The position numbers were made by a program, and so were the translations under genes. A stretch of DNA of 60,459 bases, the filler included, from Hausera hauseri (Eukaryota), in the NCBI GenBank assembly GCA_046269625.1. It is 11 parts of 11 records of this genome, joined end to end, with 100 filler letters (N's around TTAATTAATTAA, not from the genome) between each part and the next. Parts side by side here need not be neighbours in the genome. Positions count along the whole stretch, not along the records: positions 20,936 to 25,197 come from JBJURY010670551.1; positions 25,298 to 30,451 come from JBJURY010320494.1; 9 more parts are not named here. The stretch is one strand, 5' to 3'. A model generated the notes under the pieces. It had not been told where the DNA came from. It searched no databases and saw only the letters and a list, made by a program, of their open reading frames with translations. Below are positions 10,336-45,582 of the stretch, piece after piece. Each line of letters starts with the position of its first letter. Positions within the stretch are counted from its first letter, which is position 1.

Positions 10336-11211
10336 GTCATTTTCCAGTCAGCGATTGAAAATTTTTTATTTGATTTATGTTTCTCTCTTGACTAAGGTTT
10401 GGTACCAGTGGATAATCATAAGACAATGTTTATCAAGGTTACAGAAGAGAAGAGTACATATCTCTTTTCTCCCTAAATGTGATTCAGCAATGTTATCAAT
10501 TTTCTGTGGAAATATCTTACTTCAGCTAAACTAATCATTATGGTTAAGTTTTATTATGAAATGTTTTATTTGTCTGAATCATTGTGCAAATGTTTAAGTT
10601 TAAAATTAATTCATTCTTTCAGTTTGTATAGTTTCTCATCAGAGAAACTCAGCAGGTCAAAATGTTCCATTTCTGCAGCTGCACAGATTACAATCTATGT
10701 TGTCAGATAAGCTGGCGTCTTGGCAAACACTCCACTAACATTCCCGTTTTATCTATGCTAATTTGACCGTGAAGTTAGACCCTTCTCTCTTTTAGAAACT
10801 AACACTTGGCCTCTTGAGATAAAAGGTTTTCCGCACCAAGCGGAGCAGACACACTTCCGTGCCAACACAGATCAGCTGTTCTCTCCTCCAGAGAAACAGC
10901 GGTTGACTCGGTGAGATTTCGCCCATCACGCCAACGGGGGGTCTCCTGAGCCGGGACAAGATACCATCAATCGTGATCCAACCTAAGCCTTAAAGTGATT
11001 GTGACATGCTAAAACAGAGATATCATTAGAAAGAAGAGCTACTGAGCCTTCATTCTGTGTACACAGAACGTTTTAATAATAAATAGTTCTCATAAAATAC
11101 GTTAAATTCCACCCCTTTCCTCTGCACTGGAGTTTTTTTTTCTTTAGAAATCTTGCCAAACACCGGCGCATTTTTATGACGCATGAAGGGTAACGCAAAA
11201 CGTAAACAACT

Positions 11212-15900: not shown

Positions 15901-16361
15901 ATTGTATAAGGCAGGTGTCACATTTAAGTATTGGTGGATCGATGAGGTATGGAACTCAGTGATCAAATGATTGGTACATCCCTAGTTCATATTATTAAAA
16001 ATATCAATAAAAAATATGTATTTTTCTGTTTGCAGTAATATAATAAAAGCTCAGATATACCTTTGTTTTTTGTGTCCTTTCTTAATCGAACTTGTACCCG
16101 AACAGTTCTTCTGCTAGGGCATGTTTGTGTGCTTTGAGTATTCTATAAATTCAGAAATAAAAATTTACACTTCACCATCATGTTGTTTATGTATTTTTAA
16201 AATTGTTACAATTTTTTTAAGTGAGATTATTTTTGGGTCTTTACCTTCACCAGCTGCAGCATTGGAGGTGGAAAAGTGTCACTTGCACATGAGCCAGCAT
16301 CAGGTTCTTCTTCTGTGGTGATGGTGGCTTCTGGCTTTCTTGACAGAATTTCTGCAAGTCC
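12949..16361 (-). pseudogene. Kolobok DDE transposase, multi-exon, 5'-truncated, with about 2 frameshifts
   Basis: Motifs LAGDGRADSPGHSAKYGSYT, SNEVGGATHMEKEGL, VTDRH, FFDIWH, WLSLLNHIVNIH, TYSLEAFHSLLNHFAPK, AVLHFNEN, and C-terminal PPSLSSGFQHPDK. Frameshifts lie at ~15005 (A/T run) and ~13400. Confidence 0.88.
15408..15984. mobile_element. hAT-like (Ac-type TIR) non-autonomous element in a transposase intron
   Basis: Left end TACGGGTGCACCGAT; right end reverse complement TAGGGATGTACCAAT. The 8-bp flanks GTACTAAT and GTTCATAT match at 5/8 positions. Confidence 0.6.
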
Positions 16362-19300
16362 CTACAGAGAGAGAGAGAGTGCCACATTTTACACTGAAAT
16401 CATTAACAATACTTTCAAACATATTTCACCCACACATAAATGTGTATATATACATAAAGAAGAGTAAATTAATCAATTTGGGTTGGGTAGAGCACCCAAA
16501 GTACTCTTAAAATAGTTTTTACTAAAGAAAAATTAAAATTACCATCCAAAAACTAAATACACAGTAAAATACAAGATTTAAAACCGCTTAGCAACAACAG
16601 GGTAAATAATACTACGATCTGATTTTCACTATCTACATGATGTAATCAAATAAAAAAAACTATGTAAAGCTATGTAAAAATGATTTTTATGAAGAAATAT
16701 GAAAATAATTAAATTCCATTAAATTATGTAATGATGAAATCATAAAATTAGCTAGAAGAGAATATTTTATTAATCTAATTTAGAAATNNNNNNNNNNNNN
16801 NNNNNNNNNNNNNNNNNNNNNNNNNNNNNNNTTAATTAATTAANNNNNNNNNNNNNNNNNNNNNNNNNNNNNNNNNNNNNNNNNNNNTAAAGAAAGTAAT
16901 TCTAATATGGATAGAGGGAAATCACTATAACGTGTCAAATGATATAAAAGAGAAATATAAAAGTTTTATTTTGGTTGGTATATGATTTTCGGTCACGGAC
17001 TTCAGAGAGCTGGGAATCAGGTTCTTCGTTATTTCTCTTAGCAAACTGCAAGTGTCCTTCAATGATTCTCGATTACTTGATATCGTGTGCAGTGTTTACT
17101 ACTCATGAACGGTAGCCCAGTAAACTGGTGCACCGGATCCAACTCGTTCAACGTAGTTTTTTTTTCTCAGAATTTCGTGGATGCTTCAGACTGGATTGAA
17201 GGCCAATTCTCGATTTTATGCTTTTGCTTTGAGTTCTTGCTTCTTTAGCTACATTTTGTTTAACGATTTCGTCTCTAATCAGCGTTGTTCCGACATTCAT
17301 CGGATAATGATCACCAATATGAACTGGATTGTTCATTAGAATGGGCTGTTAACTTGCTTGTCTTCAATATTTAGAATTTTAAAAATATCTTCAATTACAC
17401 CTTTTATTTCATCGACACGCACAATTGTATCGGTATTTTCAATCAAAGTATCGTTCGCAGCACGAGACCACAACAGGAAATTATTCCGTTCCATAACTTA
17501 TTGAATACTGTAACATTCAAAGTCTGTTGCCTTTGTAGATTTGCTGCAATTTTCGGATTTCATCATTTATATAAGGCGTCATGTATCCAGTGGAGTATTA
17601 ATATTTGTTTTAACAAATAACATTTTGGATTTTGGATATTTATTAGGAGGAAATAGAAATTCTGGAGATGGAAGTTCAATAGATGAGGAAAGTCTTCTTA
17701 GGATGATAATTCTTTGCTGGTTGTTGTTCAACTTCATTATAATTACTACGAACGTCAATTATGAGAATTTGGTTTCTTTCTAGGCTCTGGTTTGTAATTC
17801 GCCATTGGGTTCGCGTTATGTCTCATTTCCGTTTAATAACCGATTATCGGTTTATTTCGTTCGTCGTGGCAATCAGCGGATCGGATTTGTACTAATCATG
17901 TTATGAGTTGTGAGTAGTAGTAGTAGCACTCAATTATGAGCTCGTGGTAATTTATGCGTTCGGTTTTAAACGTCGTTGTCGTCGTCGTACAAAATAAAAT
18001 TCACCATTTTTACGAAACGAACGCATTTACAACGATAATGACGATGATGATGATTTTGACTTTTTTGACAAAGCGTTTTTTGTTTGCGTTTTTTACCCTT
18101 TTCCGTTGGTTTGATCGTGAGGCGGTTATATTATGAAAATTTTCCCAACTTGTGGGCAATGTATGAGTCCCATTTCCATCACCCGCAGACTTGAACATTG
18201 GGAAATTTTATACGACAAAAATTTTCCCAACCAGTTTTCCCCTTGTTCCCTTGATCGGACGACGACAAAATCGTGTCCATTGGGCTTACTAACATCAATT
18301 TTACCTCTGTAAAAAATTTTGGTATACCAGCAACATGTGTTGCATTGCCCGTTTTTCTTCTTCCGTTTCCTGTGCCGCCGGTTGCATTTTTCGGCTTCGC
18401 GACACTGTTGACTTTTGATTGCCTTGTCCGGCTTGACCGATTGGTCTCGGTCCAAAGTCCATTGCCCGACTTTCTTCTGTCCTTGGGAGTGGTCTCCGAC
18501 CACCTGACATGAAATGCTCAGAATTGGGAGATGGGTAGGGGAAACTGGTTTTCAGGTCGATCTAAGCATTTTTTGTGACGTGGTTAGGAGCGGGCACTGA
18601 AACCTACTCTGATTCGTTGTACATTTTTTCTTCCACCGACACATTCGAGGTAGATGCATCAATTAATTCCTCTTCATTTAAACATTCTTCCTGAAGTAAT
18701 TCTTTTACGTCTTCATGACTTAAATCTGCAAATTCTTTGTGGTGCCCACCGTGAACCGTGCCCTTCGGCCGATTTTAGCTGGACACCATCAGACGTCCTT
18801 TTCCGCCAAACCGGACCCATAGTCGGACCCGAATGCCTTTTCGAGGAGTTTCACCGAGACCCACCGTTCAAGATCTCAATCTTTCTATATTTTAGTTGAT
18901 TCTGCAGCATTTCAATTCAAAAAGCAAATTTAAATCAAAGCAGACAAAATTCTATACCAATGCTCAAAATACATCTCCTCACGCGTCAGTCTCAGCAGCG
19001 TCAACTTAGTTTACTAATTGCAGCGCAGGTGGCAGCTAGCCTTTTTCATATTTCGTTGACGAGTGCAATAAAAATAATCTGGACCCAATATTCAGACTTC
19101 CGAAAAAGTTGAAACTTTGCAGATTATTAGATACACCATTTCCGTTCGACAACGACTTGCGGAAATTAACAAAATTTCGTTCATTAACCAAATCTTTGAA
19201 ATATTTTCCAACAAAACAAACTCTACCGAAATTCTACTCGATCTTTGGAAAGCTCAAAATGTATCTCGGCAAATCATTAACAATTTAATAAAATTATTCC

Positions 19301-19864
19301 GAAAAATCGGTTGACTAGACTGACTGTCCTTGAGGTAGACCTGATACAAAACAACGTTTGATTTATATTACTAATGTTCGTTTTATCAGCCATTCAAATC
19401 TCAAATAACTTTGTAGTCATATCAACAATCTTTTGCAGTTGTGAAGTATTGCCACTATACAAATTATTGCATTTTATCACCGTTTATTCCCCTTGTGTCA
19501 CTGAGTTGTTTTTGCAGCACGGAAACTGTATTCACCCTATTTTGTACAGTTGACAGCGCACTTGGCATCCCGACCAATGAAAGGGATATATCTCATTATG
19601 CTATATAAAATGAAAATTAATAGATATTGATCTGTGGAATTCCTATTGTTTAAATAGGAAAATTAATTGTAAATTTACCAAATTTCATTGGGTCTCTGTA
19701 AATATGCTGAAATTTTATCATTTTGGAGAAAAATATATATACTTTGGATTTATTTTATTTCTGGAAGATTAAATTTTATTACAATATAATTAATGCTAAT
19801 TTGGTGCCGACGACGTTCGATGGAGATAATCTGACGCACCCACAAACGCTGGCCATTATTTTGA

Positions 19865-20835
19865 AGTAGTGGGAGACTCTATGTTCGCCATCACAACCTC
19901 CCGGGGGTAATCGATAATTCCATATTGCACGTACTAATCGATAGTGCACCCTGTGCACTATCGATCGGCACATGTGCATAGTAGCAGTGTCTTTAGATAC
20001 TGTTGCCATGGCACTCTTGCATATTTCACATATCGATCGCTGCACAGTGCAGTGTTGATCGAATCGATCGGAGTAAAGTGCTAATCGATAATGCACTTTA
20101 GTGCACATCAACTGGTGCGCAGTACAGTGCACTCGCACGTGCAAATGGGTGCAAATCAATAATATCGGTTTTCCAATAATTCCAATACTGATGGTTAGCA
20201 CACTGCACCGGGTGCAATCGATTTAAAAACGGTGCACTATACAAGTGTTAAATTACAATTTAAATCGATCGAGTGGTTCTCGAATAATAACTGTTCGAAG
20301 ATGTAAGTGAGGGCAAACATACATAGGATTTTAGGCCCTAAGGAAGCAAAATTCGATATTACATTGAGCAGGGACAGATAGGAAACTGAGTATGGAGATT
20401 TGGAATATGAAGTCGAATAATCGAAATTCGAAATATCCCCCATATCGAACTAAGCACTATTCGAAAAATCTCATGACATCATTCGACTCCTCATGTACCA
20501 CAACCCTAGAACCACTTAAAATATTTCATGAAAATGTACTATATAGATATAAAATCAATAATTCGAATTACGAAATATGAGTATTCTAAGTTCAGTAGAG
20601 AATAAATCGATAAATCTTTAAGCGCACACAAGTAGGCATCTATACATGGCGAATCCAAATCCGGAGTAAGATTTTCGAATACATTATTTAAAATCGATAA
20701 CTTCGATATTCTAACTCGAAAAGTCGGTCCGGCGTACGTTATTCGAAAAATCTGATGACGTCCTTCGATTACCCATATGTGAAATCTTCTAAACAAATCG
20801 AAATTGGCGCGGTACAATGCACCGCTGTGTATTAA
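19865..20835 (+). mobile_element. Polinton/Maverick terminus (TIR and subterminal region)
   Basis: Starts AGTAGTGGGAGAC, a Polinton-type AGT-repeat end. It is collinear with 46622-47460, which lies upstream of a pPolB gene. Confidence 0.7.
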
Positions 20836-24900: not shown

Positions 24901-25326
24901 TACTGTTTCTCGATAAATTGATCCTGAAAATTGTATTTCTTGACCACACGCCGAACACGACATTCCCATTCCTGATTCATGATTATCCAAAGATGCAAGA
25001 AACAAGCTTTTTCTAATGTTTCAAATATTCACTGAAAAGCTGGACCGCTTGAAAACATGTATCTTTTGGATCAGACACGCTTTTATATATTACTCTTTCT
25101 TTTCTTTCTGATTTCACTTTTTTGACTTGTCTTAGCCACCAAACATATGACGTTATTTTTTATTGCACCAAAAAACCAATATTTATATAATACATTTNNN
25201 NNNNNNNNNNNNNNNNNNNNNNNNNNNNNNNNNNNNNNNNNTTAATTAATTAANNNNNNNNNNNNNNNNNNNNNNNNNNNNNNNNNNNNNNNNNNNNGTG
25301 ACAGTCTCAAACCCCAATACCTGTAC

Positions 25327-27200
25327 TTGGTACAGATAATACACCAAGCTTACGAATCATCTCGCAAAGAGAGAACAAGAGCATTGTGTCATATAACCAC
25401 CACCGAAGAACGACACAACCTTCATACGAAACCGCAAACAACAACTATCGAAAACAAAATATTTACGAAGAATAGATTGCCCAATATAACAACAAATCAA
25501 GGCTTTAGATCATTATTGCTGATAACTACTATATCCCATCTTGCCGTCATAATTATATTAATGTCAACAGTGACACCATGTATTAGAAGACACCGAAAGA
25601 TTAAAAAGCGCATCACATCTCGCCAAGTACAACTTCGGAATAGCCAAAGACCTCGTCGGATGATTGTACCATTGAATATATTAGTTTGCTATATACGCAA
25701 CTCATTAACAACGCTAACCTTCAGTCTTCGGAAAATAACTACGAACCTGTCTAATCCGGTATTACTAGATACATTTTCAAATTTTATGAAATTCCTAAAC
25801 AGAAATCCAAAAACAGAACCTTGGGATATCCAGGGAATTGCACCAGGAAATATTTTCATCCAATACAATCAGAAAAAGATGCCTACTTATAAAATCCTAT
25901 CCTCAACAGAATAAAACAAACAACAACAGACCTGTAAACGAAGATTGAGGAATTCTAGCACTCTATAGAAAATCACAGGCAACATATACATCTACATCCA
26001 CTCATAAAGAAAACTGTTGTAAAGTTGTCCCAGGATCTATTTATTCGGTACAAATACATACATCAAGAAGTAAGTATTTACTTTTGTCTAAAAACCAGAC
26101 AATTGAAATAATGATACTCACGGAACAGAAGACGGTTACACTATTTTTGACGGATAATTTACGCGAACAAAAGGAACGAACTAATATTGTGAGATTATTC
26201 TTAGAAGAAAGAATATTTATAGTTCAACCTGATTATAAGAAGCAATGCTTACCTGTTGAATGGGATAAAAAAACCAAATTGTAGAGTAATGCAAATAACC
26301 ACTCGATATGCCGATATATCCACCAGCAGTAATAATATTCACTATTCCATAGAACATAATCAATCAACTTGCATATTTGCACGGCTTGATCAGGAATATT
26401 CACTAATATTTGCTATCTTTTGCATAGTAAATGTTATATGGCAATGCTTGGTAACAGGAATCGAGCGAAAAGCACCAACAATCCCATGCACCCCCACTAT
26501 TGTAGATAATAAACGAATCAACGCAAAAGTATTCAATGAAAATGAAATTTTAGTGGTTGCGCCTCAAATCAGTAGAGCCCACTATGCCCTATCGTGCGCT
26601 GCGAAACGTTATAGCGAAGACGTTTATACCCTAGAGGTCAGCAGTCCACGACCTCCAATATCGTGTACAAAGGACGACAACCGACAAATACTCCTTACAT
26701 TACAGCAACAATCCTCATGTCCAAAAACTTTCTGGTTGAGCAGCTTCCGCTACTCTGTGCATAACCAAATCCCTTATCTAATAGCAGAATTGAGACAAAC
26801 TCCAAAACAAATCAAAGTGATTCCATTCAGACCATTGGACATTTACCTTCAAGTGAGATTTGACCGTGTAATGTTCAGCTTACTAAATCCCGATTTTATC
26901 GGCACATTGGAAAATGCTAACGACGCCTGTTTCCTAGTTACCAGTACTTACGTTGAATGTACACAATTAATATCAGGTTATCCCTACTTAGCCCATATAC
27001 AGTTACCTTATTATGATCCATTACGAAAACCAAAAACGTTCGCGTTGTTAGAAGTCACTACGCTCAAAAGGGGAATAAATTCATTGTTCAGATTCCCCAC
27101 ACTCAATGAAATAATGAAAAGAGGAAAATTTATTTTTAGAATATCTACCAATTCTCCTAAAGATAGTGATACCCTGAGCATCATATCACCGTCTGTTTAA
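25327..27200 (+). pseudogene. Decayed membrane-protein/polyprotein ORFs (25327-25914, 26084-26284, 26256-27200), env- or cargo-like
   Basis: TM segment LLLITTISHLAVIIILM followed by basic RRHRKIKKR. Internal signal-like YSLIFAIFCIVNVIWQCLVTG followed by a Cys-containing domain. Intronless and A/C-rich. Confidence 0.5.
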
Positions 27201-27218
27201 TCAATACTACAATTTCAA

Positions 27219-28212
27219 ATGGATTATAATTTATTTTTGCTAATCGTAATAGTAGTACCAATCAGCGTTATACTTATCATAGCAACAATCATTGCTGTAT
27301 ACGTATATATACATAAACACGTGAAAAGGAATATACTCCGTCATAGAGCAACACTTGACAGCAGACCATTCGAAATTCCTCTAACTAATTTAGAATATGA
27401 ATTTGAAATTTACGGTAATGAGAAATGGTTATCAATTATTAAAGAGGAGGAATATTACCCTTATGTCGAAACCCATGAGGAACAAATGCTACGAAAGGCG
27501 GAACGTTACATGTTAGGATATACTGATAAACCAGCTGACCCAATAGACTATACAACAGTAAGTAACGCTAGAACAACTCCATTAATGCTAGCAGTAGCAT
27601 CAGGAAACGAAGAAAGAGCTGGAGAAGCTATATCTCAATTAGGCGAAGAAGCAGCAGAAATGTTAAAATTCCAAGATACAAATGGCAATACCATCATTCA
27701 TTTAGCCATAATGAGCGAATGTCATGATTTCTTTATACTCATGCTCATTCAATCACAAGCACCCTTACATATACCCAACGTGGACGGAGATTTTTCCTTA
27801 CTGCTCGCCATACGCCATGATCGACATAACCTTGCAACCCTAATATTCGATTATGCCTGCGACAGCAAAGTATTTCAAGCTATTTTTTAACCTCAGCTAC
27901 GCAGTACACCACCGCATAATTCAATAGTATTTAAAAGATTCCTCTTACTGGAAACCTTCCTGAATAAAAAATTCCAGCAGCGGAACCTACCTATTCGACG
28001 TAAATTATGCGCATGGTACATATGAGGAGACACCTCTCATAACTGCGTTTTTGACTGGAACCAATGGCGCAGTCTTCATCCTGATGAGACGACCAGATAT
28101 CCACCCAGAAACCCACAATTATTGAAACTTAATAATCAATGACATCCTGATACGTGACCCAATGATTAGCTCTCTCGAGCGTGAACGCTTACTAGCCATC
28201 ATGCGTCGCTAG
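27219..28212 (+). pseudogene. N-terminal TM + ankyrin-repeat protein, frameshifted after 27890
   Basis: TM FLLIVIVVPISVILIIATIIAVYVYI. Ankyrin repeats TTPLMLAVASGN, QDTNGNTIIHLAI, NVDGDFSLLLAIR, and after the shift DVNYAHGTYEETPLITAF (~28000-28050). AATAAA at 28436. Confidence 0.8.
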
Positions 28213-29029
28213 ATTGTGGTGTAAACATTTTTAGACACTTCATCAGTGCTTTATCCGTGTGTATATTTTAGTGTGACTACTTAGTTCTGTATATTATCAA
28301 CATGTTACTTCTAATCACTAACGTTCCTTATCACATACAACTATTGACACTCTTTATCTTATAGCTATTGTATGTGACTCATGATTGATATAGTATTGCA
28401 TGTTATAGTTTATTTCAACTTATGTCATTAGCGTAAATAAACTTTTATTGTTATGTTTTGTATTAAGACTAAAAATGGAGCCCTATATTTATTTACAATT
28501 TTTTATGACGCACTGGCGTCCTACCTGAGTAGATCAGTTGTATTATACTAAAGTCCGTGAAACTCCAACTCTATCCCAGACAGGTGTATCTATAGCAAAC
28601 TGCAACTGACAGCACCAATTCGTTGTCACAAGTAACCCTTACAGATAAACCAAGAAAATTTGACATTATAGCCATTCATCTCGCCCGTTGCAAATTAACC
28701 GTCAACGTCAATTATAATGATCCTATATTCGACATTAATTACGAACTACTCGATAACTCCAGTGTAATTATTACTATTCCCCTGTGGACTTATTGTCTTT
28801 TACAATTTCCTCTTTAAACAACTGTATATATACTGTGGAAGTAATCCAACCAGAACTTATATACACCCACAATGAGGAATATGATCCGCCAATACATATA
28901 TCCAAACCGTTCTCATCAATAAATAAATATATTTCAGCACCAGAAGGATTGTCCCTATCAGATTTGGAACCCTATTCAACTTCGTATCCTATAATTACGC
29001 CACCACTCAACCCAATCCGACAACTACTA

Positions 29030-29517
29030 ACCAGACCATCATTGACATTGCTATACTAGATTATAAAGGCGAAATTTTATTCCAGAAACAAATTTACCCT
29101 AGACATGAAGTCATCGACTAGATAACACCTTTTACAGGCATAACAGACGATCCCACCCTAAATAAAATCGATAACGAAGACTTCCTACCCCTAACACAAT
29201 ATATACTGAATCATAAATTCATTATAACAACACAGATAGATCTACTTCTATGCTCATTGAAACTACCCACTACTCATACAAATCATTTCTTCGATCTTAA
29301 CCATCACCCTATCGCTGCAAACTTCTCGACAGACCCAGTACTCATAATTCGTCTAAGTGAACAATTATGGAACATCACCGCCATTCTTATGCATCCATCG
29401 TTGTTAATACAAGTTCACTTGCTTAGACAAATGAATAACTACCTGACAAACTCATTTTATATTGAAGACGCTGTTGATTGTATAGATCTTAATACCACTG
29501 AATTAAATCTCAATTAA
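29030..29517 (+). pseudogene. DEDDh 3'-5' exonuclease-like domain (REX4/ISG20-like)
   Basis: IDIAILDYKGEILFQKQIYPRHEVID*ITPFTGIT...FFDL...IRLSEQLWNI reads in one frame. Confidence 0.65.
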
Positions 29518-29532
29518 TTCTACTTATTTTCA

Positions 29533-29931
29533 GATCTCCTGCAATGTGTGGAATGCCGAGTAATCCTTGATGTTGTGTACCGACTTATACCATGTCTACA
29601 TATGCTATATATGTATTGCATATATCAAACCCGAGTCAAAGCAAATTCATTGCCATATTGGACAATTTGTAAATCCGAGATTAAATATTGCATCCAGCAC
29701 ATAGCTTATTCATCTCATGATGACCAATCCCTACTCGATGCTAAAACATTCAAAATCCTTAAACCTACTGATCATACCGCATATTACTACACCTGTGATG
29801 TGTCAACCCTTTCTCTATTACATATTTCCAGCTCCATACATGTTGTTTATGCAGTAAACCCAACAAAACAGCCTACCAGTTTTGCTGTTGTAACACCGAA
29901 TATTGCTCGCATTGTTACCACTGACACTTGA
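29533..29931 (+). pseudogene. C3HC4 RING-finger protein (degenerate)
   Basis: CVEC-RVILDVVYRLIP-CLH-ML(Y)MYC...(W)TIC-KSEI, preceded by acceptor-like TTATTTTCAG. Confidence 0.6.
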
Positions 29932-30345
29932 TTTGCAGCATATGCTACTTCTGTCCCCAATTTATATATTCCTACTTTCAACACCCTAGAAGAGTCCTCT
30001 TCACTGTTACTAACACGTCAATTCTTCAGTTACTTCCAACCAGATATTTTTGATTAGAGCAACAATCATCTGCCTGAATTAAATTCCCAATCCATCGCTT
30101 TAACCCGTCCACAATAGTTAGACCACCACCAATCGTACCCCAAGTACCTTACCCCATATAAACATCACGTCCCTATTACGTCAAACATCATCAATACCGC
30201 ATACTCGTTATCGCCTTCAACAAATCATCAGACCATTACCAGCATTACCAATGCCAACACCATTAATAACACCAACACCAACTATATCTCATAGTCCTAC
30301 ATTACCATTATCCTTACAACAAGATTAGTTCCCAGTTATAAATAA

Positions 30346-30451
30346 ATGTCCAACGACCTCATTTCCGACCTAGCCCCACCAGATCTTTGGGCGTCACTGC
30401 AAATCCTATTCTACGACCAACTACCAACATATGAATGTACTATATGCCTTA
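30346..30451 (+). CDS. Start of a second probable RING protein, cut by the contig end
   Basis: MSNDLISDLAPPDLWASLQILFYDQLPTYECTICL. Confidence 0.4.
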
Positions 30452-30770
30452 NNNNNNNNNNNNNNNNNNNNNNNNNNNNNNNNNNNNNNNNNNNNTTAAT
30501 TAATTAANNNNNNNNNNNNNNNNNNNNNNNNNNNNNNNNNNNNNNNNNNNNCCAAAAAGGATGAAAACAAGACTCATTTAATGAGTGAATGAGCTAATTG
30601 TTATACCAACTTTTATAATAAATTTCTAGTGCTTAATTCAGTCTTACAATCACCGAATGACGTTGATGTTGGAATGGTAGATACGCGATCTACTAACAAG
30701 GAACATACACTGAAGACGAATTATCTGGAATCCACATATGGTCGAGGTGATTAAACTTGTGTAGGTTTTG

Positions 30771-31237
30771 TTAAATAGCGATTACATCTTGAGCCATGTT
30801 TAACGCAGAATGTGTGCCCGGTGGTCGAAATTTATTTATACGGCAGACATCTGAATAGATGACCTGACCAAAGGTGACACGCAGTAGGTCAATAACTCCT
30901 AAGAGATTTTTAATTGAGATGGAGAAAAGTGACATAAATAATCGAACATTGAACGATACTAAGACTCTATTATATGTGTTGCACGCAAAATGTGTCGATA
31001 CACAATTTCAAAATCTGGGGCGGAATCAAGGTCATGAAGGATAATACCATGACGGTGTGACTCAGAATTGGTAATACGAACAAGGGGATTAATAAGAGTG
31101 TCATATCGGAGAAGAAGTAATTCAGAATTGAGTTCAAATAAAGTGACAGCTATACATACGGATACCGATCCAGACAAAGCAGTTGAATAGCCAATGAATA
31201 GAATGTCGTCATTGACAGGTAGTCGATTAATTCGCAT
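30771..31237 (-). pseudogene. DEDDh/DnaQ-like exonuclease downstream of gypsy pol
   Basis: YDTLINP..ITNSESHRHGI..DLDSAPDFEIVY, then SMFDYL, VIDLL and THSALNMAQD (ExoIII-like). One stop and one frameshift. Confidence 0.7.
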
Positions 31238-31694
31238 GTAGGAACGGTCGAGATAGGCGGAGGGGGGAGAGTTAATTAATTGAAATCCGGTAAGCTCCGT
31301 TTTTCATCACGGTGGGATTCCCAGTAACGAAGCCAAGGGCGGTCATTATGATATTCCAATTCGAGGTAGATAATAGTCGGCACAGAAATAATATCGATTT
31401 ATGGATATTGGTCCTTCCAGATTTCGGATGAAACGAACAGTGACCTTTGCCGAGGTATTACGATACTATTTGTAGGGTCATTTATACCATTTATGTAAAA
31501 TATTAAAGATTCTTCGGCGAGTTATAGCATAAAGGTGCTGAGATAATGAGGTAAATCCGGTTTGCGACTCACATTAGCAACAAAGGTTCGTAACAGTCTT
31601 TTTGTAATATGAGGGAAGCGATGGATTTTAATGAGACGATTTTAGATACTGTTGCCCTTGTACTTGTTGCGGAGGGCATAAATAGAAGGATGGA

Positions 31695-33750
31695 TTAAGG
31701 ATGGGCGTAAATGTCCTTTGGCAGCGATTGACTTTGTGTGTTTCGATTGAAAATATTCATAGAAGATAAATCTGTCAGTTGATAACACTGAATAGAGCAA
31801 TCAATAAAACGAATCTCGAAGTTATAAGTAACAGCATCGCCGAATGTTTCATAACGTTTGGGATTACACAATGCTTTAGACAGTTTATGATCTCGTTGAC
31901 ACTGATTTGAAGGAGAAAATTGAAAAATTGGTTGGGAGGTATCCATTACATCAGAACAGTTTGAATGTATCACTAAAAGGAAGGAAAAATTTAGAAAATC
32001 CGCCACAGCAATATGCCTAGCTGCTGCAGCTAAGAAAGGAAGTAGAAAATATGCCGCAGCAATGTTCCTAGCTGCGCAGCTATCTGTCGTTGTCATAAAA
32101 TATCTTCATATATAAGGGATTTTTAGAACGATTTTGGCGATTACGTATATATAGAATATTATTAATTACATCATAATCAGTCGAGTTTTCATACAGATTA
32201 GCAGAATCAACTTCCAAAGGTAGTGATCTACATTTTTGACCGAAAAGAACAAGGACAAATATCAAAATTGCTATAAAATCATTAGGTACAATAATGAAGC
32301 AAAACCGAAAAAGCCAGTTGGTGTGAGTAGATGTAGCAGTAAAGTTGAAAGCGTCAATGGAGTACTAGTATAGTATATTGTTTTATGAAGGGGTCTGAGG
32401 ACATTAAGTGTCTTAGGGGGAGTCTTTGGCCGTGAAGTAGCTAACTGGATTGTATGGTCCCATTTTCGATTCAATGTAGCCGAATAAATAGTGCAGACCA
32501 CTGGTCCAAAATAAGGACGTGAACAGACCTGTGTTCTAAAAATAGTATACAAAATGCACAAGGGTAAGGAATTATGGACACACCTCAAAATGTGCGGTGA
32601 AGTGGTATTGGCATGAAAAGCGATGTGTTTTTAAAATTGTAACCTGAACTTCATTCCATTGCTTTATAACTGTTTCTGTAGATACAGTAGAACTGTATTG
32701 TAATGTATAAGGGATTTTAGTACTTGTCAATTGTGGCAATATGGAAGTAGTGTTCCCAAAGTTCGATAGCAATGTAACATTTAATAGAACGAATTTGTTA
32801 AAACCTGGAAGATGAATATAAGATGAATAAAATCATTAACCTTCAAGAATATATTTCTCTGACTCATGAAAGTACGAATATGTGTATACATAATACCATT
32901 TTCAAGAGATTGAAATAGTTGTCCTTTTTCATCAAGGCCGGAGATTTTGATGGCTTTATGACATTGTCCAATTTGAATAAAGCAAACTAAATTTTCAGTA
33001 ATGATAAGCACCCATGGAATGAAATATGTTTCGCTTAATTTATCACTTTGAGTTGTAGATACCATTTCCCAAAGATAGTGTTTTCGTATATTCAGGGTTT
33101 CTGGTGGGGACATTAACCACGTAAATTTCAAATATCAAATTGTTGCATTAAGGTAGAACGACATTTGTAGCCAATTTGACATGTTACATTGAAAAAATGA
33201 ATACTGTTTATTTGTGGCATTGTTCTGTGACTCACCAACTATTTTACTCCTAATTTCATATCCTTTTTTTGTTGCCACGACCATTATTCCAAGTCGATTA
33301 TTTATTTCCTGCCAATAAATGAAATAAGGAATTTTAGAGTTGTCCTGGAATATCGGCACTTCAAATATTTCTGAATCAAAACTTTTAATTTGTGTACCAT
33401 TAGCCCATTCTTCAATTGTTTGCTGTAACGGGCAAATAAATGAAAATCGGTATACACACTGTCCATTAGGTGGTTCAACTTCATATACTGAAAATATTCC
33501 TCCAAAACGATCCTTTACTGAAAACAGCCGTATTACAAGTAGATTTTTTGCATGGGATATAAAGCTATAAAATCGTATATCTTTGTTTTGTGTGCTCCAA
33601 CCCCACTGAATACTGAAACCATTAGTTGTATTGAAAACACATACAAAGAAGTGCGATATATAAAGCTGTAAACTTGGGGTTTCCTTCTATATCAATTATC
33701 TTGGCATTATTATCTCCTGTATTTTCGAACGCAGTAGTTTTATTGAAAAT
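31695..33750 (-). pseudogene. Env-like / multi-signal membrane polyprotein immediately after gypsy integrase
   Basis: Reading continues past the IN stop into FTALYIALLCMCF, then an ectodomain with N-X-S/T sequons (NTT, NGT, NAT, NMS) and Cys. Further hydrophobic segments are FIPWVLIITENLVCFI and FCFIIVPNDFIAILIFVLVLFG. Confidence 0.55.
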
Positions 33751-34907
33751 TTAGTAGTCTTTTGAAGCTTTCTTGCACCGTTCAGCCGCTATTGCAACAA
33801 TTTCTTCACGTTTTCCAATCTTTTTATTGATAAAAATATTATTTTCTGTTACCCTCTCGACTTTATGAGGTTCTTTCCACGGACGAGCCAGTTTTGGGGA
33901 CTTACCTTTTTTGACAGCTGGTTCGAACAACATTATATAGTCTCCTTCCTTAATTGTATGAGGTCTAGATTGTTTGTCAAACTGATTTTTATATTGCTTT
34001 TGGTAATCTAAGGTTAATGACTGAGCTAGTGCCCAGGCTTTGGTCAATCGTTCTTTACGATATTGGACGTAGTTAGGCTCGTAGGACGTTAATGATTCAT
34101 CGGGAATCATTTCTAAATCTCGTGGCAATAATGGATCTCGTCCGTACATTAAGAAAAATGGTGGTTGTTGCGTAGCGGAATAAGGTGCCGTTCTTAGGGC
34201 GAACATACAAGTGGGAATATATAAATCCCAGTCATCTTGTCTGTCATTTGTAACTGTTGCCAACATTGATAGTAACGTACCGTTAAGTTTTTCGACCATA
34301 CCATCACAACATGGGTGATAAGCGGCTGTTTTAAGTTTGTACATAGAAAACATCCTGCATACTTCTGAAAACATGTTGTTAACAAATTCTGTACCTTGAT
34401 CTGTTAGTATTTTTCTTGGGGCTCCGTACCGAAATACGATTTCCTCTACAAACAATGCAGCTACCGAAAATGCCGAAAAAGCTTCAGGAAATCTAGTTAA
34501 ATAATCAACGAAAACCAAAATATATTGATTTCCACTCTGAGTTTTAGGAAGCGCACCAACGATGTCCATAACTGTAAATTCCATAGGACTTGCTGGAGGT
34601 TGGATTGGATGCAAGGGAGGTTTGCATTTATAGCTTCTATTTCTTTTGGTTGCACAAACAATACAACTATCACACCAATTTTAAATATATTTATGTAGTG
34701 TACGCCAATAGTGTTTTCGCTTTATTCTACCAAGGGTCTTTTTAAAGGCTATGTGCCCTGCAAGAATTTTATTGTGTTCCTGTTTCATTATTTCACTATG
34801 TCGACTTTGTGGTAATATTACCAATTGTCCATTATTATACCAATATCGTAATAATTCAGATGATATAGCATACTTTGCACCTTGACTTATTAGATGTTGT
34901 ATCAACT
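33751..34907 (-). mobile_element. Ty3/gypsy integrase (HHCC zinc finger, DDE core, GPY/F-like module)
   Basis: EHNKILAGH..KT, CIVCA, VMDIVG, VDYLTRF, LTDQGTEF, YHPCCDGMVEKLN, KLARPWKEPH. Confidence 0.95.
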
Positions 34908-35739
34908 NNNNNNNNNNNNNNNNNNNNNNNNNNNNNNNNNNNNNNNNNNNNTTAATTAATTAANNNNNNNNNNNNNNNNNNNNNNNNNNNNNNNNNNNNN
35001 NNNNNNNAAACTGGGCAAATCGGTACCCGTCCTCCGAAAAGTCCAGCAGCGCCGTTCCAAAAATGTTATTATTTGTGCATCGCTAAGCCATAAGTCAAAT
35101 ATAATTTAACTTACTTCGACAATGAAATAACTTCGTCACTTTGATTAGTAATTTCCAAATGAAAGCTATCATCTTTAAACCTACCGTCTAAAACTCTTTT
35201 ATAACAAATAATTAGCAACATTTCGATCTCGACTAAGGCTCGAGTAATGATCTTGCTTACCAGCATGTATTTTGCTAATCTCTATTACCATCACTTTTGA
35301 ATTGTTCTTAATGCCCTGAGTAACCAGAAAGAAGTCATCTTTTTTAGAATTTTTCTTAAATATAATCTGATAAGGACTGATCGATATTGAATATAATTGA
35401 AAATTTTTCTGTAATGAATGTCTAGTTTTCATTTGCACGTCATCAATATCAACGTTGGGAGTTTTCTTTTAATTTAGGCTAATGTACTTTAACAATATGA
35501 ATTGCTTTGGTTCTGTCCGAATTTTCAATAGATTTCATTCGCAATGAATTTAATTCACTACCTACTTCGGATAGACTAAATTTGATTATATGTGCAATTT
35601 GTTCAGCTAATAATGTCAACGATGTACCACGTTCGTTTTCAGTTGTATAAGGTGGGTCGCATAGTCGAATTTTGTTCTTTATTAAATAATTTTTTATCTT
35701 TAATTTCAAATAGTAATGTGCCATACACAAAATGAACTA

Positions 35740-35865
35740 TGTAGCGACAAGGCTCCCTGCACGAGGACAACGGGTCCCGGTTAAGGCACAGCAAAAACGG
35801 AAACACGAAATCAAATGTGCCCGACCAAAATGGGCCACGGAGCAACACAGCACGTTGGCACCACA
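35740..35865 (-). repeat. Candidate short 3' LTR of the CsRn1-like element
   Basis: On the minus strand, PPT GGGGGAAGTGA is followed by TGTGG...CTACA. Confidence 0.55.
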
Positions 35866-38800
35866 TCACTTCCCCCGTGGCAAAGTGAAAACTATAAAGC
35901 AAAAAAGCAACAAAGAGCAAAATCCACAAAAAGGGAAAAGTGTTTGTGCCATATTTGGTTTTTGTGTGAACCAAACGTTGTACTTTGTCGAAATTTTGTT
36001 CTCTACTGTACTTGCTGAAAGTAACTCTGCGTGTTGTGCTTGCGTATTTTGAGTTTGCTTGCCGAGGTGTAAGTTGAGAAAAATATGTTGGATTTTGTCG
36101 TGAGTATTGTTTTAGTTGAGGAAAGTGAAGATTGCAAAGGGTAGTTAGTAAAAGGTGAAGATGAAAGAAAAGGTGGAGATGTGAAAGATTGCAGATTTAG
36201 GAAAGACTCAGAAGTTGAGAAGGATTGAGGAAAGATATGTAGTAAAGCAGAATTAGAAGAATGCGTGTTTGAAGAAAGTTGAAGATGTGAAGGAGGCTGA
36301 GAATTTGGAAAAGGTTGAAAAACAGAATCGAAAGAAGATTTGTCTTCAAGTGAAAGTCGTGTGGTTAGATAAATTGGATGGGAGTGAAATGGTGAAAAAG
36401 GAATCAATAAAAGTGTCAATAGAGTTGGTGTTGGTTTGTGTGTCTTCGGGAGAGTCATCAACTATGAAGGCTGGTTTTAGATTTGTGATGTGCACAATTT
36501 GTTCTTTACCACTTTTAAGAATAGTAGCTGTATGAGAGGATAAAGATAAAAGTTTGCATGGTCCAACGTATTATGGTTGGAAACCACAAGGTGAATGATT
36601 GCGAAGCCAGACGAACTTAGCGGTATACAAATCATTTGGTATATTTGATTTGTTATGATTTACTATTTTGAAAAATGAGTCTTTGTTTAGTGTAACAAAG
36701 TGATTTTGCGCATTCCGAATGAGCTCATCTGTTGGTGTATCGTCCAGATCAGTTAACTCATAAAGTGCTCCAATCGGTGTTCCAAACAGTGCTTCAGGTG
36801 GTGCACAACCCGTGGTGGTGGCGAGTGTGTTTCGCCAGCCAAGCAGGACAAGAGGTAAGAGAGCTGTCCAGTTGCTGTGTGGTTCAGTTAGGATTTTAAG
36901 TGAGATCTTCATTGTGCGGTGAAATCTTTCTAGTAAATCGTTCGTTTGGGGATAATATGGAGAAGTGTGTATACATTTAATCCCCAAGCGATTAACTAAG
37001 GATTTAGAGATTTGACTTGAATTGTGGACCTTGGGCCGTGATTATGAAGCGAGGGGAGCCAAATCTGCTGATCCACGTTTTGATGAAGACCTCAGCGATA
37101 GTGTCTGTGTTGGTGGAACGTAATGGAATGGCTTCTGGCCATCGAAAAGAACGATCCATCAAGGTGAGTATGAATTGATGACCGTTGTCTGGACGAAGAG
37201 TGCCGACTAGGTTTATATGGACGGATTCAAAACGGTACATACAGGGGAAGTGATATAATGGTGGCTTCAGATGCTTGTAAATTTTGAATTTTTGGCATGC
37301 CACGCATTCCTTAACCCACGCCTGTACATCTGATTTCATCAACGGCCATATAACACTACGTTGCAGAAGACGAAAAGTTGCTTTGGCACCCGGATGATGA
37401 AGAGAATGTACGTTATGAAATGCAGTTTTCTGCAAAGATGGAGACAAAATTAGTTTGTGGTTAACGGATTTAGAAGTGTCATAGTCTATTCCGTCAATGA
37501 TTTGGTGCCATTTAAAAGACTTAAGAATTTCCTGTGCTGGTACATTTGTGTAAGCACTGCCTGTGAGAAAATTGGAGTGACTCTAATGATGTTAACCGAT
37601 CTAGACAAAAAATCAGCCACCAAATTGTCAGTGCCTGTAATATGTACCGTTTTAAAATTGAATATTGACAAGTACGATATGTGACATTCTTGTCTAGGTG
37701 AAGGAGTTTTCATATCCATGATTCGATTAAGAGGTTTGTGGTCAATTTGGATCGTAAAAGACCTGGCAATTAACAAGTGTGAGAAATGTTTTACAGCTAA
37801 TACTATAGCTAGGAGCTCTCTGTCGAAAATTGAGTAACGACTTTCTGTTGATGTAAGTTTGCGAGAATACAATTCCAGAGGCTCATTGACGCAATTAGAA
37901 ATTTGATGCAATATTGCGCCAACTGCTGTGGTAAAGGCATCTGTGGTTTATATTAGCTTTGCGTCAGGCTTGGGGTAAGCTAGAATTTCAACAGTTTTTA
38001 AACCTTTACGTAAATTATCAAACTGGTTGACAAGTTCGGGAGGCCAGTGAATTAATTGTTTCTTCTTTTCTGACTATAAAAATGCAAACGGTGCAGTTAA
38101 TTCCGAGCAGTGTGGCACATATTTGTGATTAAAGTGGAGTGTGCCAAGGAAAGAGTGAATTTCAGTTGTTCGTGGCAATTGGATATTCTTAAGCTGAGTT
38201 ATGCTGTCTTACTGAGGAGAGTGGCCAAATTTGGTAATGACATGACCAAAGAAATGGATCTTGTGTTGGAAAAAAAGAACATTTGGCGAATTTACTTCTA
38301 AATTATTTTGGTGGCGGCGTTGAAAAATTGTGCCTAAGTGCTCAGAATGTTGTTTAGGAGGTGACGAATCTATGAGAATCTATGTATGGGAATGCAAAGT
38401 TTAGACCAGCAAAAATTGTGTCTATGTGCCTTTGAAATGTTTGAGAGGCACTGCGCAGACCAAAGGGTATGAAGACATACTCAAAAAGATCGAAAGGTGT
38501 TGTCACAAATGTTTTCGGTATATCAGCAGGTGAGACAGAAATCTGATGGTAGGCTTTATGAAGATCGATGGATGAAAATATGGTGTTGCCATTGAGTGTG
38601 TGTAGGATATCATTGATGAGCGGTAATGGATATGCGTCCATTACCGTAATCGCCACAGGGCCTGAAAGTACCGTCCTTCGTGGGCACTATGTGTAGAGAT
38701 GAGACCCAAGGTGACTTTGATCTTCTTACAATTCCTGTTTTTTCTAATTCATTGAACTCCGATTCCACGGCATTGCGTCTGCGTGGAAAAAGTGGCCTGC

Positions 38801-40980
38801 TCTTCTGTTTTATTGGTCTTTGGTGTTCAGTGACGATGTGATGGTACGTCGTAGAAGCAGGCTTGAAATTTGGGTCTTTATTCAATGCTCTGGGACAAGA
38901 AGTTGTGATGTAGTCACGAAGAGTTGTATCCAGTTGCATGAATGGGGAGGTAATGTGAGAGGTTGTTTCGGTGTTGGCAATTGTTTTTGCTGTTACTGTA
39001 TGAATGTAAAGGTCTCAATCGGAATTCTCAACATTTAATTTATCTAGTTTAACAAAAAAAGATTTCTTTAGTATAGTCTCCGGCGCTCCAGTCAACTGCG
39101 CAACAAGTGGTGCATTATTTGGTGATTTTGTATTATTAATTGTATTTTTTATCACGCGATGCTGTCTGCAGTCGACAAGTAAATTGTAATGTGATAGAAA
39201 ATCAGAACCTAAGATGGGAGTTTTGATATCAGCACCAATAAACTTCCATTTAAAAAGTTCAGGGAAATGTGCTAAGGTGAAGGAGAGTTGTGCAGTACTA
39301 GAAATGAGTAAGGCTTGCCCGTTGGCAGTAAATAGCTTAGCAGTGGTGGGAAGAATTTTTAAAGAATGGAAAAATGAAGGTAGTAATGAGACCACTGCAC
39401 TCAAATCAATCAAGATTTTAGTATGGTGTGGAGAAGATGCTAGTGCAGCGTCCAATAGGAAAACAGCATGAGTACGGCTATTGGGTGATGAAAGATGGCC
39501 TTTTCCAGAATTTGCCGTAGTTTCTGGAGGCTTTAGGCGTTTTTTTGAGTGGATGAAGAAGTTGGAGTGTTCTGGGTGAAAAGCGTACATCCAGATAAGC
39601 AGCGTTTTGCATTGCCTTTGAACTTACTGTGATAGATTCAGACTACATCTCGTGATTGGAAATTCTGCGTATAGAATTTACAGCCTACACAGCAATTTTT
39701 GGCATTTCGATTGAATTTGGTTTGATAATAACACTATCCGTCGCAAAGGTGACTGGGCACGCTTGGAGTTTACAGATGACTGTATACTTTGATTTGCGCT
39801 AAATCGATTACGACGCAGAAAGGACAAAGCGTTGAGTCTGCTAGATATAGCCGAAATAGCCTTATGTAAGGCCGAATTTTCGGCTTGAAGATTTTGAATT
39901 TCATAACTATATTGTTTGCGTTGTTTGATGAGTTTGTTGATTGTGGATGTGCAACTATTAGAGGTGATTGCGTTGACTGTAAATCTAAAATTGTTGTATG
40001 TGCATTATTGGTATGAAAAATTTCGTAACTTTTGCCCGCACGTTGTGCCACTTTGTCTAGCGACGTACAATCCTCAACTACAGTGAGGAGTGCGCGTATA
40101 TGGATTGGCTGAGCTGAAAGGAAGTACCGTCGGAGAAGATCGGCGTTATTTTGTTGGTTTACTCCCAAAATATTCAATTGTGATAGTGAAGTGCGCAGAA
40201 ATTTAGTGGGCTTTTGCGGCCCAAGAGCGTTCTCATTAAAACGTTTTTGAATTATAGAGTCCAGAGAAGGCTCAGTTGCTTTAGGCACAGCGTCCAATAG
40301 AGATTTTTAGGGGTCGGAGTGATTAAAAATGTCAGACAGATTAGTAATGAAGGATTTTATGTTTCGCGGCAGATGAATCAGCAAACTGTTGGCGTTTTGA
40401 AAGGAATCAGTGATTTTATGTGAGGCTAGCCACTTTGCGTGGAAGTCTAGCCATGTTCTACCTGAATTCTGACTATCGAGGAGGAAGTTAACGCACTGAA
40501 GGTGTGAAAAAGAGGAAGGAGTTGGCGACACGAAGGTTATGTTAAGCGACTTCTTAATCTCGTCGGAGTTGGGGTAGAGCTACCATGAAGTTTAGGCTGA
40601 AGCGTGATACACATGGATGAAAAGGGATGCAAAAGAAATCTGTACAGAGGATCATGTGGACGGATGATGAAGTCATTGAAAATCAAGGCAAAGTTAAACA
40701 TGTCGGTGGTGCGTAAGATTGAAGTATGTAGGTCTTTTCCTAAGGTATTGTGATTTGCGGTATGTGTATGGATGTGCATGTTGTATTTAAAAATGAAAAT
40801 GGAAAAAGTTGGCTGGCTGGAGCCAGGGGCGTGATGTGATAATTCTGCGCTGCGTGACACGCGATCCACAGCCCGGGACAAACGACCGAGCGCGCGACCC
40901 CGCAAGGATGGCACAGCGATGCCGAGCAGCAGAAATCCCCATCAAAGAGTTCGGCCGTTGATACAAACACCGATTTGGAG
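35740..40980 (-). mobile_element. Second degenerate CsRn1-like Ty3/gypsy element (leader, gag, PR, RT, RH, IN, S/P/T tail, PPT, LTR)
   Basis: Paralogous to 1-4185 throughout: LGPQKPTKFLR, ILGSDFLSHYNLLVD, FGLRSASQTFQRHID..PYID, YSIFDRELLA, HHPGAKATFRLLQR, LLERFHRTMK. Confidence 0.95.
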
Positions 40981-42375
40981 NNNNNNNNNNNNNNNNNNNN
41001 NNNNNNNNNNNNNNNNNNNNNNNNTTAATTAATTAANNNNNNNNNNNNNNNNNNNNNNNNNNNNNNNNNNNNNNNNNNNNATTTATGCGATTTGTAGTGT
41101 TTTCTTGATGTTCTTCTGAAATAAAAAATATCCATCTACCATTTGGCCTTCAGTTGGTGGTCACTCGTGTGTGTAGATTGCAAGAAAATGTTTCAAATCG
41201 AATATTAAAAGGACGTTAGTTCGAGAAAATGAACAGAAATTTTGTCAAAGTTCAAAATTCCTAAACGCTGTGGGGGAGATGTGAACAAGTGCCAAAATGC
41301 AGCCACACTCCAATCGCGGTATTTTGGCTTCATTTGGAAAATGTTTCTGTCATATTTTGCACGTCTCTCTGACAATTTGTCATAAAAACTCTGATTTACA
41401 GTTGTAGCATCATTTGAAATTCGTCGTTGTCATGTTAAATTAATGAAAACATTAGATGATATCAGCAAAAAACTTGTTTGATTAAACATTTTAATGTAAG
41501 AAAGGGTCTAATTTTTAATAAAACTAATATTTTCATTTGTTGGAAAAGACGAAAACATTTGAATGAATAAACTAACTTTCTATTTCTCAAATAAAATATG
41601 TCCGTTTATTGTTTATTCAAAATTATTGTGCAGAAAAGCAACACTTTCATAGTTAATTGACAAATCGTTTTTCTACACAAGACATTAAACGTGGATTTCA
41701 CTGAAATTTAAATGAGCGAATTACAAACAGTTTGTTGTTAATGGCTTTCGATTGAGACATTCTCAATTCTCAACGCTATTTTGACTTCTAGTTCATTCTA
41801 AAGTGTGTAGGATTTACTGATGTGGAATTATTTTTATATTTGAGCAAAGTTTTGTTTCACTCTTTCGTAATTTTTCCCCAAATATCATTCTAAATTCCCC
41901 CTGTTTATTTATTACGACTTCTATACGATTTTCTACCTTATCATCCGTTCTTTAAAACTAGCATTCTTTCCATCCATTAAAGATGAAATTTTTTTGTGTT
42001 GTTACCATTCATTTTAGTTTAAATTCTAGATTTCAAATCTTATTTACACAACCCCCAACTTTGTCTTGAAACACTGCCATAACCTTAACGTCTTGTATTT
42101 AGTTCATTTTTAAAATCCCCGTTTCTAGTTCACTTGTGTTTTTGTATTGGATGGCATTAGTACATTATAGTCACCGAATGCTTCAATCCACAGCTGTAAC
42201 TATTACTACCGCTGTAGGAAGAAAATGAAACGTTTTCCTGTCAGCTAAATAACCTTATCAAGTTAAGGGTTATTGACTATTTTAACTACATTTTCGTTAT
42301 GATCAATCTGAAGTTTCCCAAATTTTGTACCTTTCCATAATCATGTTCAAAACTTCGGCAATTCGTCATGGCATT

Positions 42376-45300: not shown

Positions 45301-45582
45301 TTTTGCTTCATCCGTAAATGAACAATCAAATTGCGGCAGTGATGCGTCATGGTATTTACGGAAATGTTACTGGTATTTCCCATTTCCATGGTCTTAGCGT
45401 GGTTTCCAGTTACGATCAGTTTGCTCGGCAAGATCGGTGGATCGAAATCCAGAATATCTTCTGACTTCTCATTGACTTCTACGTTCGACTCTGTTCCACA
45501 TATTTCGACAAAAGTTAAATAATTTATTAATTACATATATTGAAACAAATTTTTCATTTATGAAAAATAATTTTAATTATTA
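42376..45582 (-). mobile_element. Internally deleted Ty3/gypsy element with LTR remnants
   Basis: Direct repeat 42376-42465 / 45504-45582. PPT at 42480-42493 is followed by TG on the minus strand. Gag knuckle CFCC*KHGHVRRNC (~44556-44600). RT IYLDDVLIYSK...VNPKKC. Integrase core is missing. Confidence 0.85.

Follow-up and report, generated by a model that had tools for sequence, protein, structure and literature searches.

A high-copy block of membrane, ankyrin, exonuclease-like and RING genes in Hausera hauseri, a candidate accessory region of a giant retroelement

What kind of element carries a run of same-strand genes for membrane, ankyrin-repeat, exonuclease-like and RING-finger proteins in the genome of Hausera hauseri (assembly GCA_046269625.1)? 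The run lies in a window, by which we mean the whole 60,459-nucleotide stretch of DNA that was analyzed; this window consists of separate contigs joined by linkers of N, and the gene block corresponds to exactly one of them, at positions 25298-30451. Because of these linkers, the position of the block beside a contig carrying a gypsy-type retroelement (30552-34907) is no evidence of a link between the two. An earlier note had described the block as a decayed, virus-like cassette and suggested that it might be the 3′ cargo of a giant long terminal repeat (LTR) element related to that gypsy contig. We find that the gene block is real, previously unannotated and present in high copy, although the details given for its nuclease, RING and membrane open reading frames (ORFs) require correction.

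A decayed copy of an abundant gene block

Stop-free frames of at least 100 codons cover 70.9% of the contig on the plus strand and 0% on the minus strand. None of 200 dinucleotide simulations of the contig reached this coverage (mean 3.6%, maximum 19%), and the contig is coding, as the dense, co-oriented ORFs of the earlier note implied. Its base composition (A 0.347, C 0.228, G 0.138, T 0.287; GC skew −0.246) confirms the A/C skew that had been noticed, and alignment to intact relatives reveals the frame changes and in-frame stops expected of the decay that had been proposed. The intronless layout holds for the nuclease-like and RING genes, which are colinear with the relatives P0008 and P0002. 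The contig reads as a dead, broken copy of a multigene block, predicted to be unable to encode these proteins intact. No long repeat was found inside it, both of its ends fall within ORFs, and an Rfam scan of 25298-30451 gave no match, hammerhead ribozyme included.

To gauge abundance, contigs of one public run (X1, of unknown kind, containing 38% of the sampled words) were matched to the block at 80% likeness. They numbered 12,329 and covered 30 of 30 bins, with 597 at 99% identity or more, 1,751 at 95 to 99%, 4,568 at 90 to 95% and 5,413 below 90%, so that 9,981 were less than 95% identical to the block. Summed depth, which is not copy number, ranged from 325 to 14,448 with a median of 2,452, against a comparison depth of 6.3 for one X1 contig that exactly matches the neighboring contig 30552-34907. 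At any one of the sites listed, as many as 109 distinct contigs carry a difference from the window, and since dozens of variants per site diverge by 5 to 20%, the variants are not allelic. As a rough guess we put the copy number at a few hundred, and the single-copy host locus that the earlier note had named as its counterexample is not what we see. The joints of X1 contigs that were listed (15 of 98) are each represented by a single contig, and no shared intron is marked by them; no RNA run occurs among the listed runs that contain the contig's sampled words.

A separate observation concerns the differences themselves. Among the 40 best-supported difference sites listed for the block (1,135 further rows follow them), one transition type occurs 17 times and its strand complement twice (p 0.0014). 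The neighboring contig has the same bias (9 versus 2) in the same plus-strand direction, though it is coded on the minus strand. RNA editing, transcription-linked mutation and a ranking artifact are all possible causes.

Relatives of the encoded proteins are few. HMMER with the 3′ frame against 1.84 billion representatives returned three matches at E up to 0.001, which cluster and homolog look-ups extended to eight ENA proteins (P0001-P0008); intact relatives exist in ENA assemblies. The nuclease-like P0008 and the RING protein P0002 are each found on an ENA contig of 19,467 bases, and P0007 and P0003 each on one of 2,652 bases. From these equal sizes we infer that each pair shares a contig and that the nuclease-like and RING genes therefore stay neighbors. 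No related locus was detected with the block proteins in IMG/VR, JGI metagenomes, GTDB or phage records, and a BFVD fold search, made with a poor model, gave no match at E up to 0.001.

The proteins of the block

The gene at 28475-29517 (plus strand, ~350 codons) would encode a conserved N-terminal beta domain followed by a DEDD-like domain (~28981-29470), and is colinear with P0001, P0007 and P0008; these three and the window copy are the four copies compared below. In the window copy the reading frame changes near 28500-28550, 28730-28835 and 28910-28980 and is interrupted by a stop at 29119-29121. The four copies share their terminal motif, which shows that the stop at 29515-29517 is genuine. 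Neither the exonuclease-like nor the RING gene matched a Pfam family in its window copy: of the profile searches that the earlier note had proposed, Ank exceeded its cut-off directly in the window, and RNase_T and zf-C3HC4 were reached only through P0008 and P0002. P0008 matches RNase_T with E 0.0048, short of the curated cut-off, as one of two members that match among three. When a profile of the nuclease-like protein was compared with PDB, all four matches were DEDD exonucleases (PolC exonuclease, ISG20L2, ISG20 and SDN1), at E of only 0.028 to 0.18; the window copy matches an NCBIfam 3′-5′ exonuclease with E 0.013, and the predicted order of strands and helices is compatible with DEDDh exonucleases. 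Support for a DEDDh-like domain thus appears weak in each test but consistent across tests.

The catalytic residues of DEDDh enzymes are established. At the motif I Asp and Glu positions, all four copies have Asn and Val or Ala, and the motif II Asp is aligned with Leu in the PDB alignments, on which the four copies again agree; motif III, judged by eye from motif spacing, is presumably also absent. Identity among the three intact relatives is 72 to 74% in the DEDD-like domain, 64 to 79% in the N-terminal parts and 21 to 42% in the linker. Because all four copies agree and the domain is conserved, loss of the catalytic residues is a family trait and not decay of the window copy. The protein is probably a pseudo-nuclease, and the simplest reading is that it would bind nucleic acid. 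Inactive DEDD derivatives retain RNA binding in PIWI-interacting RNA pathways, according to the parts of PMC5408684 on which we draw. Compared with ISG20/ISG20L2/SDN1/PolC-type DEDDh exonucleases (PDB 1wlj, 7yw5, 5z9x, 2p1j), similarity is weak and consistent over up to 114 profile positions, whereas the block protein has ~180 extra N-terminal residues and carries other residues at the acidic positions of motifs I and II. The beta domain of P0008 retrieved only cupin-like sandwiches at Z ~6, which is background level. The REX4/ISG20-like exonuclease of the earlier note therefore survives as a DEDDh-like similarity carried by the relatives, but not as an active enzyme, motif I being acidic in none of the four copies.

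Downstream of a short spacer (29518-29544, plus strand) lies a single gene with three cysteine fingers (29545-30451, plus strand), colinear with residues 1-302 of the 425-aa P0002. Its first RING-HC finger (29545-29670) keeps six of eight ligand positions in the window copy; a middle CC-x4-C-x2-C finger (~29841-29955) is followed by a proline-rich linker; and of the second RING-HC only the start is present (30436-30451), truncated by the contig end. Frame changes near 29800, 30140 and 30330, together with stops, break the gene. P0002 itself passes the Pfam zf-C3HC4 cut-off (E 1.8e-4) over two RING stretches and has the same order of RING-HC, middle finger, proline-rich linker and second RING-HC. 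Its residues 298-352 hold the full C3HC4 ligand pattern, and residues 3-41 hold seven RING ligands, the first ligand lying upstream of the called start. PDB matches to the middle finger were confined to two RBBP6 RING entries at a nonsignificant E of 0.8 to 1.3. The C3HC4 fingers reported earlier are real, but the two RING genes are one, as P0002 shows, with a third finger between. There is no ATG from the upstream stop to the first RING cysteine, so expression would need splicing or read-through; the spacer contains an acceptor-like AG at 29533, which ties for rank 4 of 241 AG sites by a crude in-house score.

Upstream of the nuclease-like gene, the frame at 27219-27890 (plus strand) encodes a membrane-anchored ankyrin protein (TM-ankyrin) with an N-terminal transmembrane segment, a linker and three ankyrin repeats (~27552-27860). 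Pfam Ank_2 (E 3.4e-7), Ank_3 and Ank all score above cut-off, the hydrophobic segment precedes the repeats, and 18 PDB ankyrin proteins match at E up to 0.01, in agreement with the earlier description of a membrane-anchored ankyrin protein. The role of IkB mimic suggested for it was not supported, since none of the 18 is an IkB. Polydnavirus vankyrins, which are IkB mimics, have repeats closest to IkB and are soluble, whereas the protein here has an N-terminal membrane segment. The frame may extend, broken, to ~28212, and one PDB ankyrin alignment continues past the stop. An extra repeat seen by eye at ~27991-28122 was not confirmed, and a suspected resemblance of the juxtamembrane stretch to receptor kinases found no support in PDB. 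The first 125 residues had no match among proteins of 122 to 391 aa, a search that did not take in longer fused forms. Between this frame and the nuclease-like gene is a T-rich spacer (28213-28474, plus strand) in which AATAAA occurs at 28436 and, directly before the next ATG, an acceptor-like AG at 28467 (rank 11 of 241 by the same score). As a candidate membrane ORF the spacer was rejected, there being stops in all three frames.

Three ORFs precede the ankyrin gene, all on the plus strand. The first, truncated by the contig start (25298-25914), has 204 stop-free codons, its true frame downstream being uncertain, and contains a hydrophobic segment at ~25516-25572 (hydropathy 2.26) followed by a basic stretch. 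A 111-codon open frame (25949-26284), for which no family was found, overlaps the start of a 325-codon ORF (26223-27200) with 10 cysteines and a signal- or anchor-like hydrophobic segment (26406-26462), whose product is likely secreted or lumenal. This third ORF is in frame with TM-ankyrin and ends six codons before its ATG, with one stop between. None of the three matched Pfam at cut-off or PHROG, nor did they match Pfam as an F-type or gB-type envelope gene. The 325-codon ORF had no homolog among proteins of 178 to 569 aa (longer fused forms lay outside that search) and no usable Atlas match, and its single-sequence AlphaFold model (pLDDT, the predicted local distance difference test, 35) was unusable. 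What remains of the membrane ORFs reported earlier is the single hydrophobic segments at 25516 and 26406, with no family or homolog beyond them. Two further candidates were discarded. The 5′ end of the contig scored 24 to 25 as an integrase C-terminal tail, inside the shuffle range and with one of three queries off-frame and hence uninformative, and two more searches for such a tail were blank; an intron at 26070-26222 has a donor-like site, with an acceptor ranked only 178 of 241.

The class of the element

Is the block then a continuation of the element on contig 30552-34907? That contig, coded on the minus strand, carries a gypsy integrase (Pfam rve E 1.9e-7, Integrase_H2C2 E 2.6e-8). The integrase is followed by additional, decayed ORFs with hydrophobic segments over ~2.8 kb, and an exonuclease-like ORF at 30962-31303 has weak DnaQ-type matches (E 0.02 to 0.11). 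In both contigs, membrane ORFs are followed by an exonuclease-like ORF, which is the case for joining them. Against this, the block has no BLASTN or tblastn match to the contig, its nuclease-like proteins no profile match there (probability 0.2%) and its upstream ORFs none either (best E 0.91). Median summed depth is 2,452 on the block and 104 on the gypsy contig (~24-fold), the median number of distinct contigs per listed site is 48.5 versus 6 (8-fold), and X1 contigs number 12,329 versus 2,380. Third-position C/G skew is 0.72 versus 0.53 (Fisher p 1.9e-5), and the gypsy contig terminates in an unrelated, very high-copy repeat. We regard continuity as very improbable: the link drawn in the earlier note fell away, and at most a loose analogy of layout appears to remain. 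Contig 30552-34907 is a second, lower-copy, cargo-carrying gypsy family, for whose integrase an IMG/VR scan found no related locus. The short repeat abutting its end (30552-30698) has a summed depth of 197,432, and 52 contigs diverge at its edge, 30698.

The reading of the block that we prefer, at an even chance, is that it is the accessory region of a giant LTR retroelement (gypsy-type, provirus-like), dispersed in high copy; the 3′-cargo idea of the earlier note thus remains the best reading of a multicopy mobile block once the tie to the neighboring contig is dropped. All long frames on one strand and a multicopy, diverged family fit Ty3/gypsy elements, features that are necessary but not specific. 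The sense-strand ratio C3/(C3+G3) of the block, 0.72, is closer to the 0.64 and 0.63 of two gypsy families in the window than to the 0.50 and 0.51 of its polB-like and DNA-transposon-like genes, which were named by eye. A RING gene that lacks a start codon behind an acceptor-like site would count toward a retroelement, and the apparent conserved neighborhood of the nuclease-like and RING genes and the selective conservation of domains may likewise favor the LTR reading. In the parts of the articles cited, the Burro gypsy elements of planarians, present in thousands of copies, include RING and ankyrin motifs (PMC6431247), and rotifer LTR elements carry DEDDy ORF3s (PMC5408684).

Several points weigh against this assignment. 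On the 5-kb contig we detected neither gag nor pol, nor an integrase tail or LTR; the lack of pol had been noted earlier and is upheld by Pfam searches and the integrase-tail tests. C-over-G skew is a weak marker, because it is absent on gypsy contig 30552-34907 and differs even between the block and the two gypsy families (p 0.036 and 0.025). Acceptor sites were scored by a crude measure, and abundance was read from one run as summed depth. The DEDD assignment rests on scores short of curated cut-offs, and fold searches with an AlphaFold model of pLDDT 38 retrieved no DEDD fold. Finally, separate ORFs with AATAAA between them, and spliced genes, would also fit a DNA virus.

That last point introduces an unlikely but serious alternative: the block could be part of a large endogenous DNA virus or of a DNA transposon with virus-like features (Polinton/Maverick, nimavirus-like or Teratorn-like), in which every gene would come with a separate promoter and polyadenylation signal. 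Such viruses and transposons often carry RING, ankyrin and nuclease-like genes, which counts in favor of this reading, as do the short spacers, the AATAAA at 28436 and a polB-like fragment, named by eye, elsewhere in the window. In addition, the endogenous nimavirus Nimav-1_LVa has spliced, multi-exon RING genes and runs of genes in the same direction (PMC7016691, in part). It is harder to reconcile with all ORFs of the block lying on one strand, with a C-over-G skew of 0.72 versus 0.50 in the polB-like gene, and with copies far more numerous and more diverged than the ~12 at >95% identity described for Nimav-1_LVa in the same portion of PMC7016691. The absence of relatives in IMG/VR and the blank BFVD search, poor as its model was, also speak against a virus. 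No DNA-virus core replication or capsid gene was found on the 5-kb contig.

One-strand layout and skew suit any retroelement, and the block could instead hold accessory ORFs of a giant non-LTR element, for example one of the Penelope type that resembles a Terminon. In Terminons, units of up to 40 kb include DEDDy exonucleases along with transmembrane ORFs (PMC6431247, in part). We consider this improbable: the contig has no hammerhead ribozyme or other Rfam match, depth shows no steady 5′ to 3′ rise of the kind expected under 5′ truncation, the nuclease-like protein is DEDDh-like and not DEDDy, and RING and ankyrin are absent from the Terminon cargo list in section 8 of PMC6431247.

Still less probable is an expanded cluster of immune-type host genes, formed by tandem arrays or segmental duplications and not mobile. 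Expansions of ankyrin and RING genes do occur in host genomes, and no mobility gene was found on the contig. Such a cluster would nevertheless have to account for at least five intronless genes with spacers of 20 to 260 bases amplified as one block, for the finding of just three relatives in 1.84 billion representatives (E up to 0.001), and for the heavy decay of the window copy.

The remaining contigs of the window hold gypsy, DNA-transposon and satellite fragments, a content that points to an animal host, probably an invertebrate. An A-rich contig (4286-8980; A 0.395) has decayed plus-strand ORFs, an internal repeat of 219 bases (67% identity) and no Pfam match in any plus frame, and may belong to another large unclassified element. 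Contig 9081-16787 contains an acetyltransferase-like ORF (9808-10335) that lacks introns and seems intact; next to it are transposase-like and cysteine-rich ORFs that we take by eye to resemble a Kolobok DNA transposon. Three more decayed gypsy-like pol fragments lie at 1-4185, 35008-40980 and 41081-45582, the first two being ~66% identical over 1.6 kb. A protein-primed polB-like fragment, recognized by eye, was noted for contigs 45683-50740 and 16888-20835, which have ~800 bases in common at 69% identity. The three contigs at 50841-60459 consist of a four-base, purine-rich satellite whose strand skew is extreme (A 0.49 to 0.57).

Precedents, proposed mechanism and significance

To our knowledge, the majority of retrotransposons in animals have no more than a single extra gene. 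Each cargo type of the block has a precedent, and we found no published description of the combination; our search was thin on subscription journals, and supplementary catalogs (e.g., that of PMC13524379) and Repbase could contain the family. The published elements are characterized here from parts of the cited articles. Burro, a giant gypsy-like LTR element of planarians, is similar in its high copy number and its cargo of RING-type zinc finger and ankyrin motifs, proposed to interfere with host ubiquitination and apoptosis (PMC6431247). Its motifs sit in one ~4,900-aa polyprotein with gag and pol, whereas the ORFs here are separate and co-oriented; the block, on which no pol was found, further differs in its membrane-anchored ankyrin and DEDDh-like pseudo-nuclease, and no BIR, BCL2 or MATH domain was found in it. 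The Juno and Vesta LTR elements of bdelloid rotifers resemble the block in carrying a DEDD-superfamily nuclease and transmembrane ORFs as extra cargo (PMC5408684). Their nuclease, however, is DEDDy, with invariant residues intact and encoded by a single ORF3, whereas the DEDDh-like domain here has a nonacidic motif I and an extra beta domain and is one of at least five genes; ankyrin and RING are not mentioned in the portions of PMC5408684 consulted.

Terminons, giant Athena Penelope-like elements, have numerous accessory ORFs, DEDD nuclease and transmembrane ones among them (PMC6431247). The contig differs from them in having no hammerhead motif, a DEDDh-like domain in place of DEDDy, RING and ankyrin cargo and no Athena reverse transcriptase that we could see. 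Nimav-1_LVa is likewise a multicopy integrated element with RING genes, some of them spliced, but its RING fingers are in BIR-containing, inhibitor-of-apoptosis-like proteins, its genes are on both strands and its ~12 copies are near-identical; the sections of PMC7016691 consulted mention neither ankyrin nor exonuclease. Those of the errantivirus and Troyka articles (PMC13524379, PMC12440569) mention no ankyrin, RING or exonuclease.

If the block does belong to an LTR element, a long sense transcript of live copies would serve as the genome for copying, and downstream proteins would be made from spliced subgenomic messages, as the acceptor-like site and missing start codon of the RING gene suggest. 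The cargo proteins would act on the host cell and not on the chemistry of replication. The three-finger RING protein is predicted to act as a ubiquitin ligase and so to remove host restriction factors. The DEDDh-like protein would serve as a shield or decoy, binding RNA or single-stranded DNA ends but leaving them uncut; TM-ankyrin would act as an adaptor tethered to a membrane, perhaps as a receptor tail, and the upstream ORFs would encode secreted or membrane proteins. More speculative, and in our view doubtful, is a giant LTR element resembling a complex retrovirus, with at least five separate accessory genes, a pseudo-nuclease RNA decoy, a triple-finger ligase, a possible Notch-like receptor and hundreds of copies. 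In that picture the 325-codon ORF and TM-ankyrin would possibly form, in live copies, one protein of ectodomain, membrane segment and ankyrin repeats.

The proteins of the block stand almost without relatives in public databases, with three among 1.84 billion representatives. DNA-viral flanks, if found, would make the element an unusually abundant endogenous virus instead. The conserved nuclease look-alike without catalytic residues presents a testable decoy hypothesis. A high-copy element that keeps several host-interaction genes would, if the reading is true, be an invertebrate counterpart of complex retroviruses and large DNA viruses, and the block would then offer candidate suppressors of host silencing.

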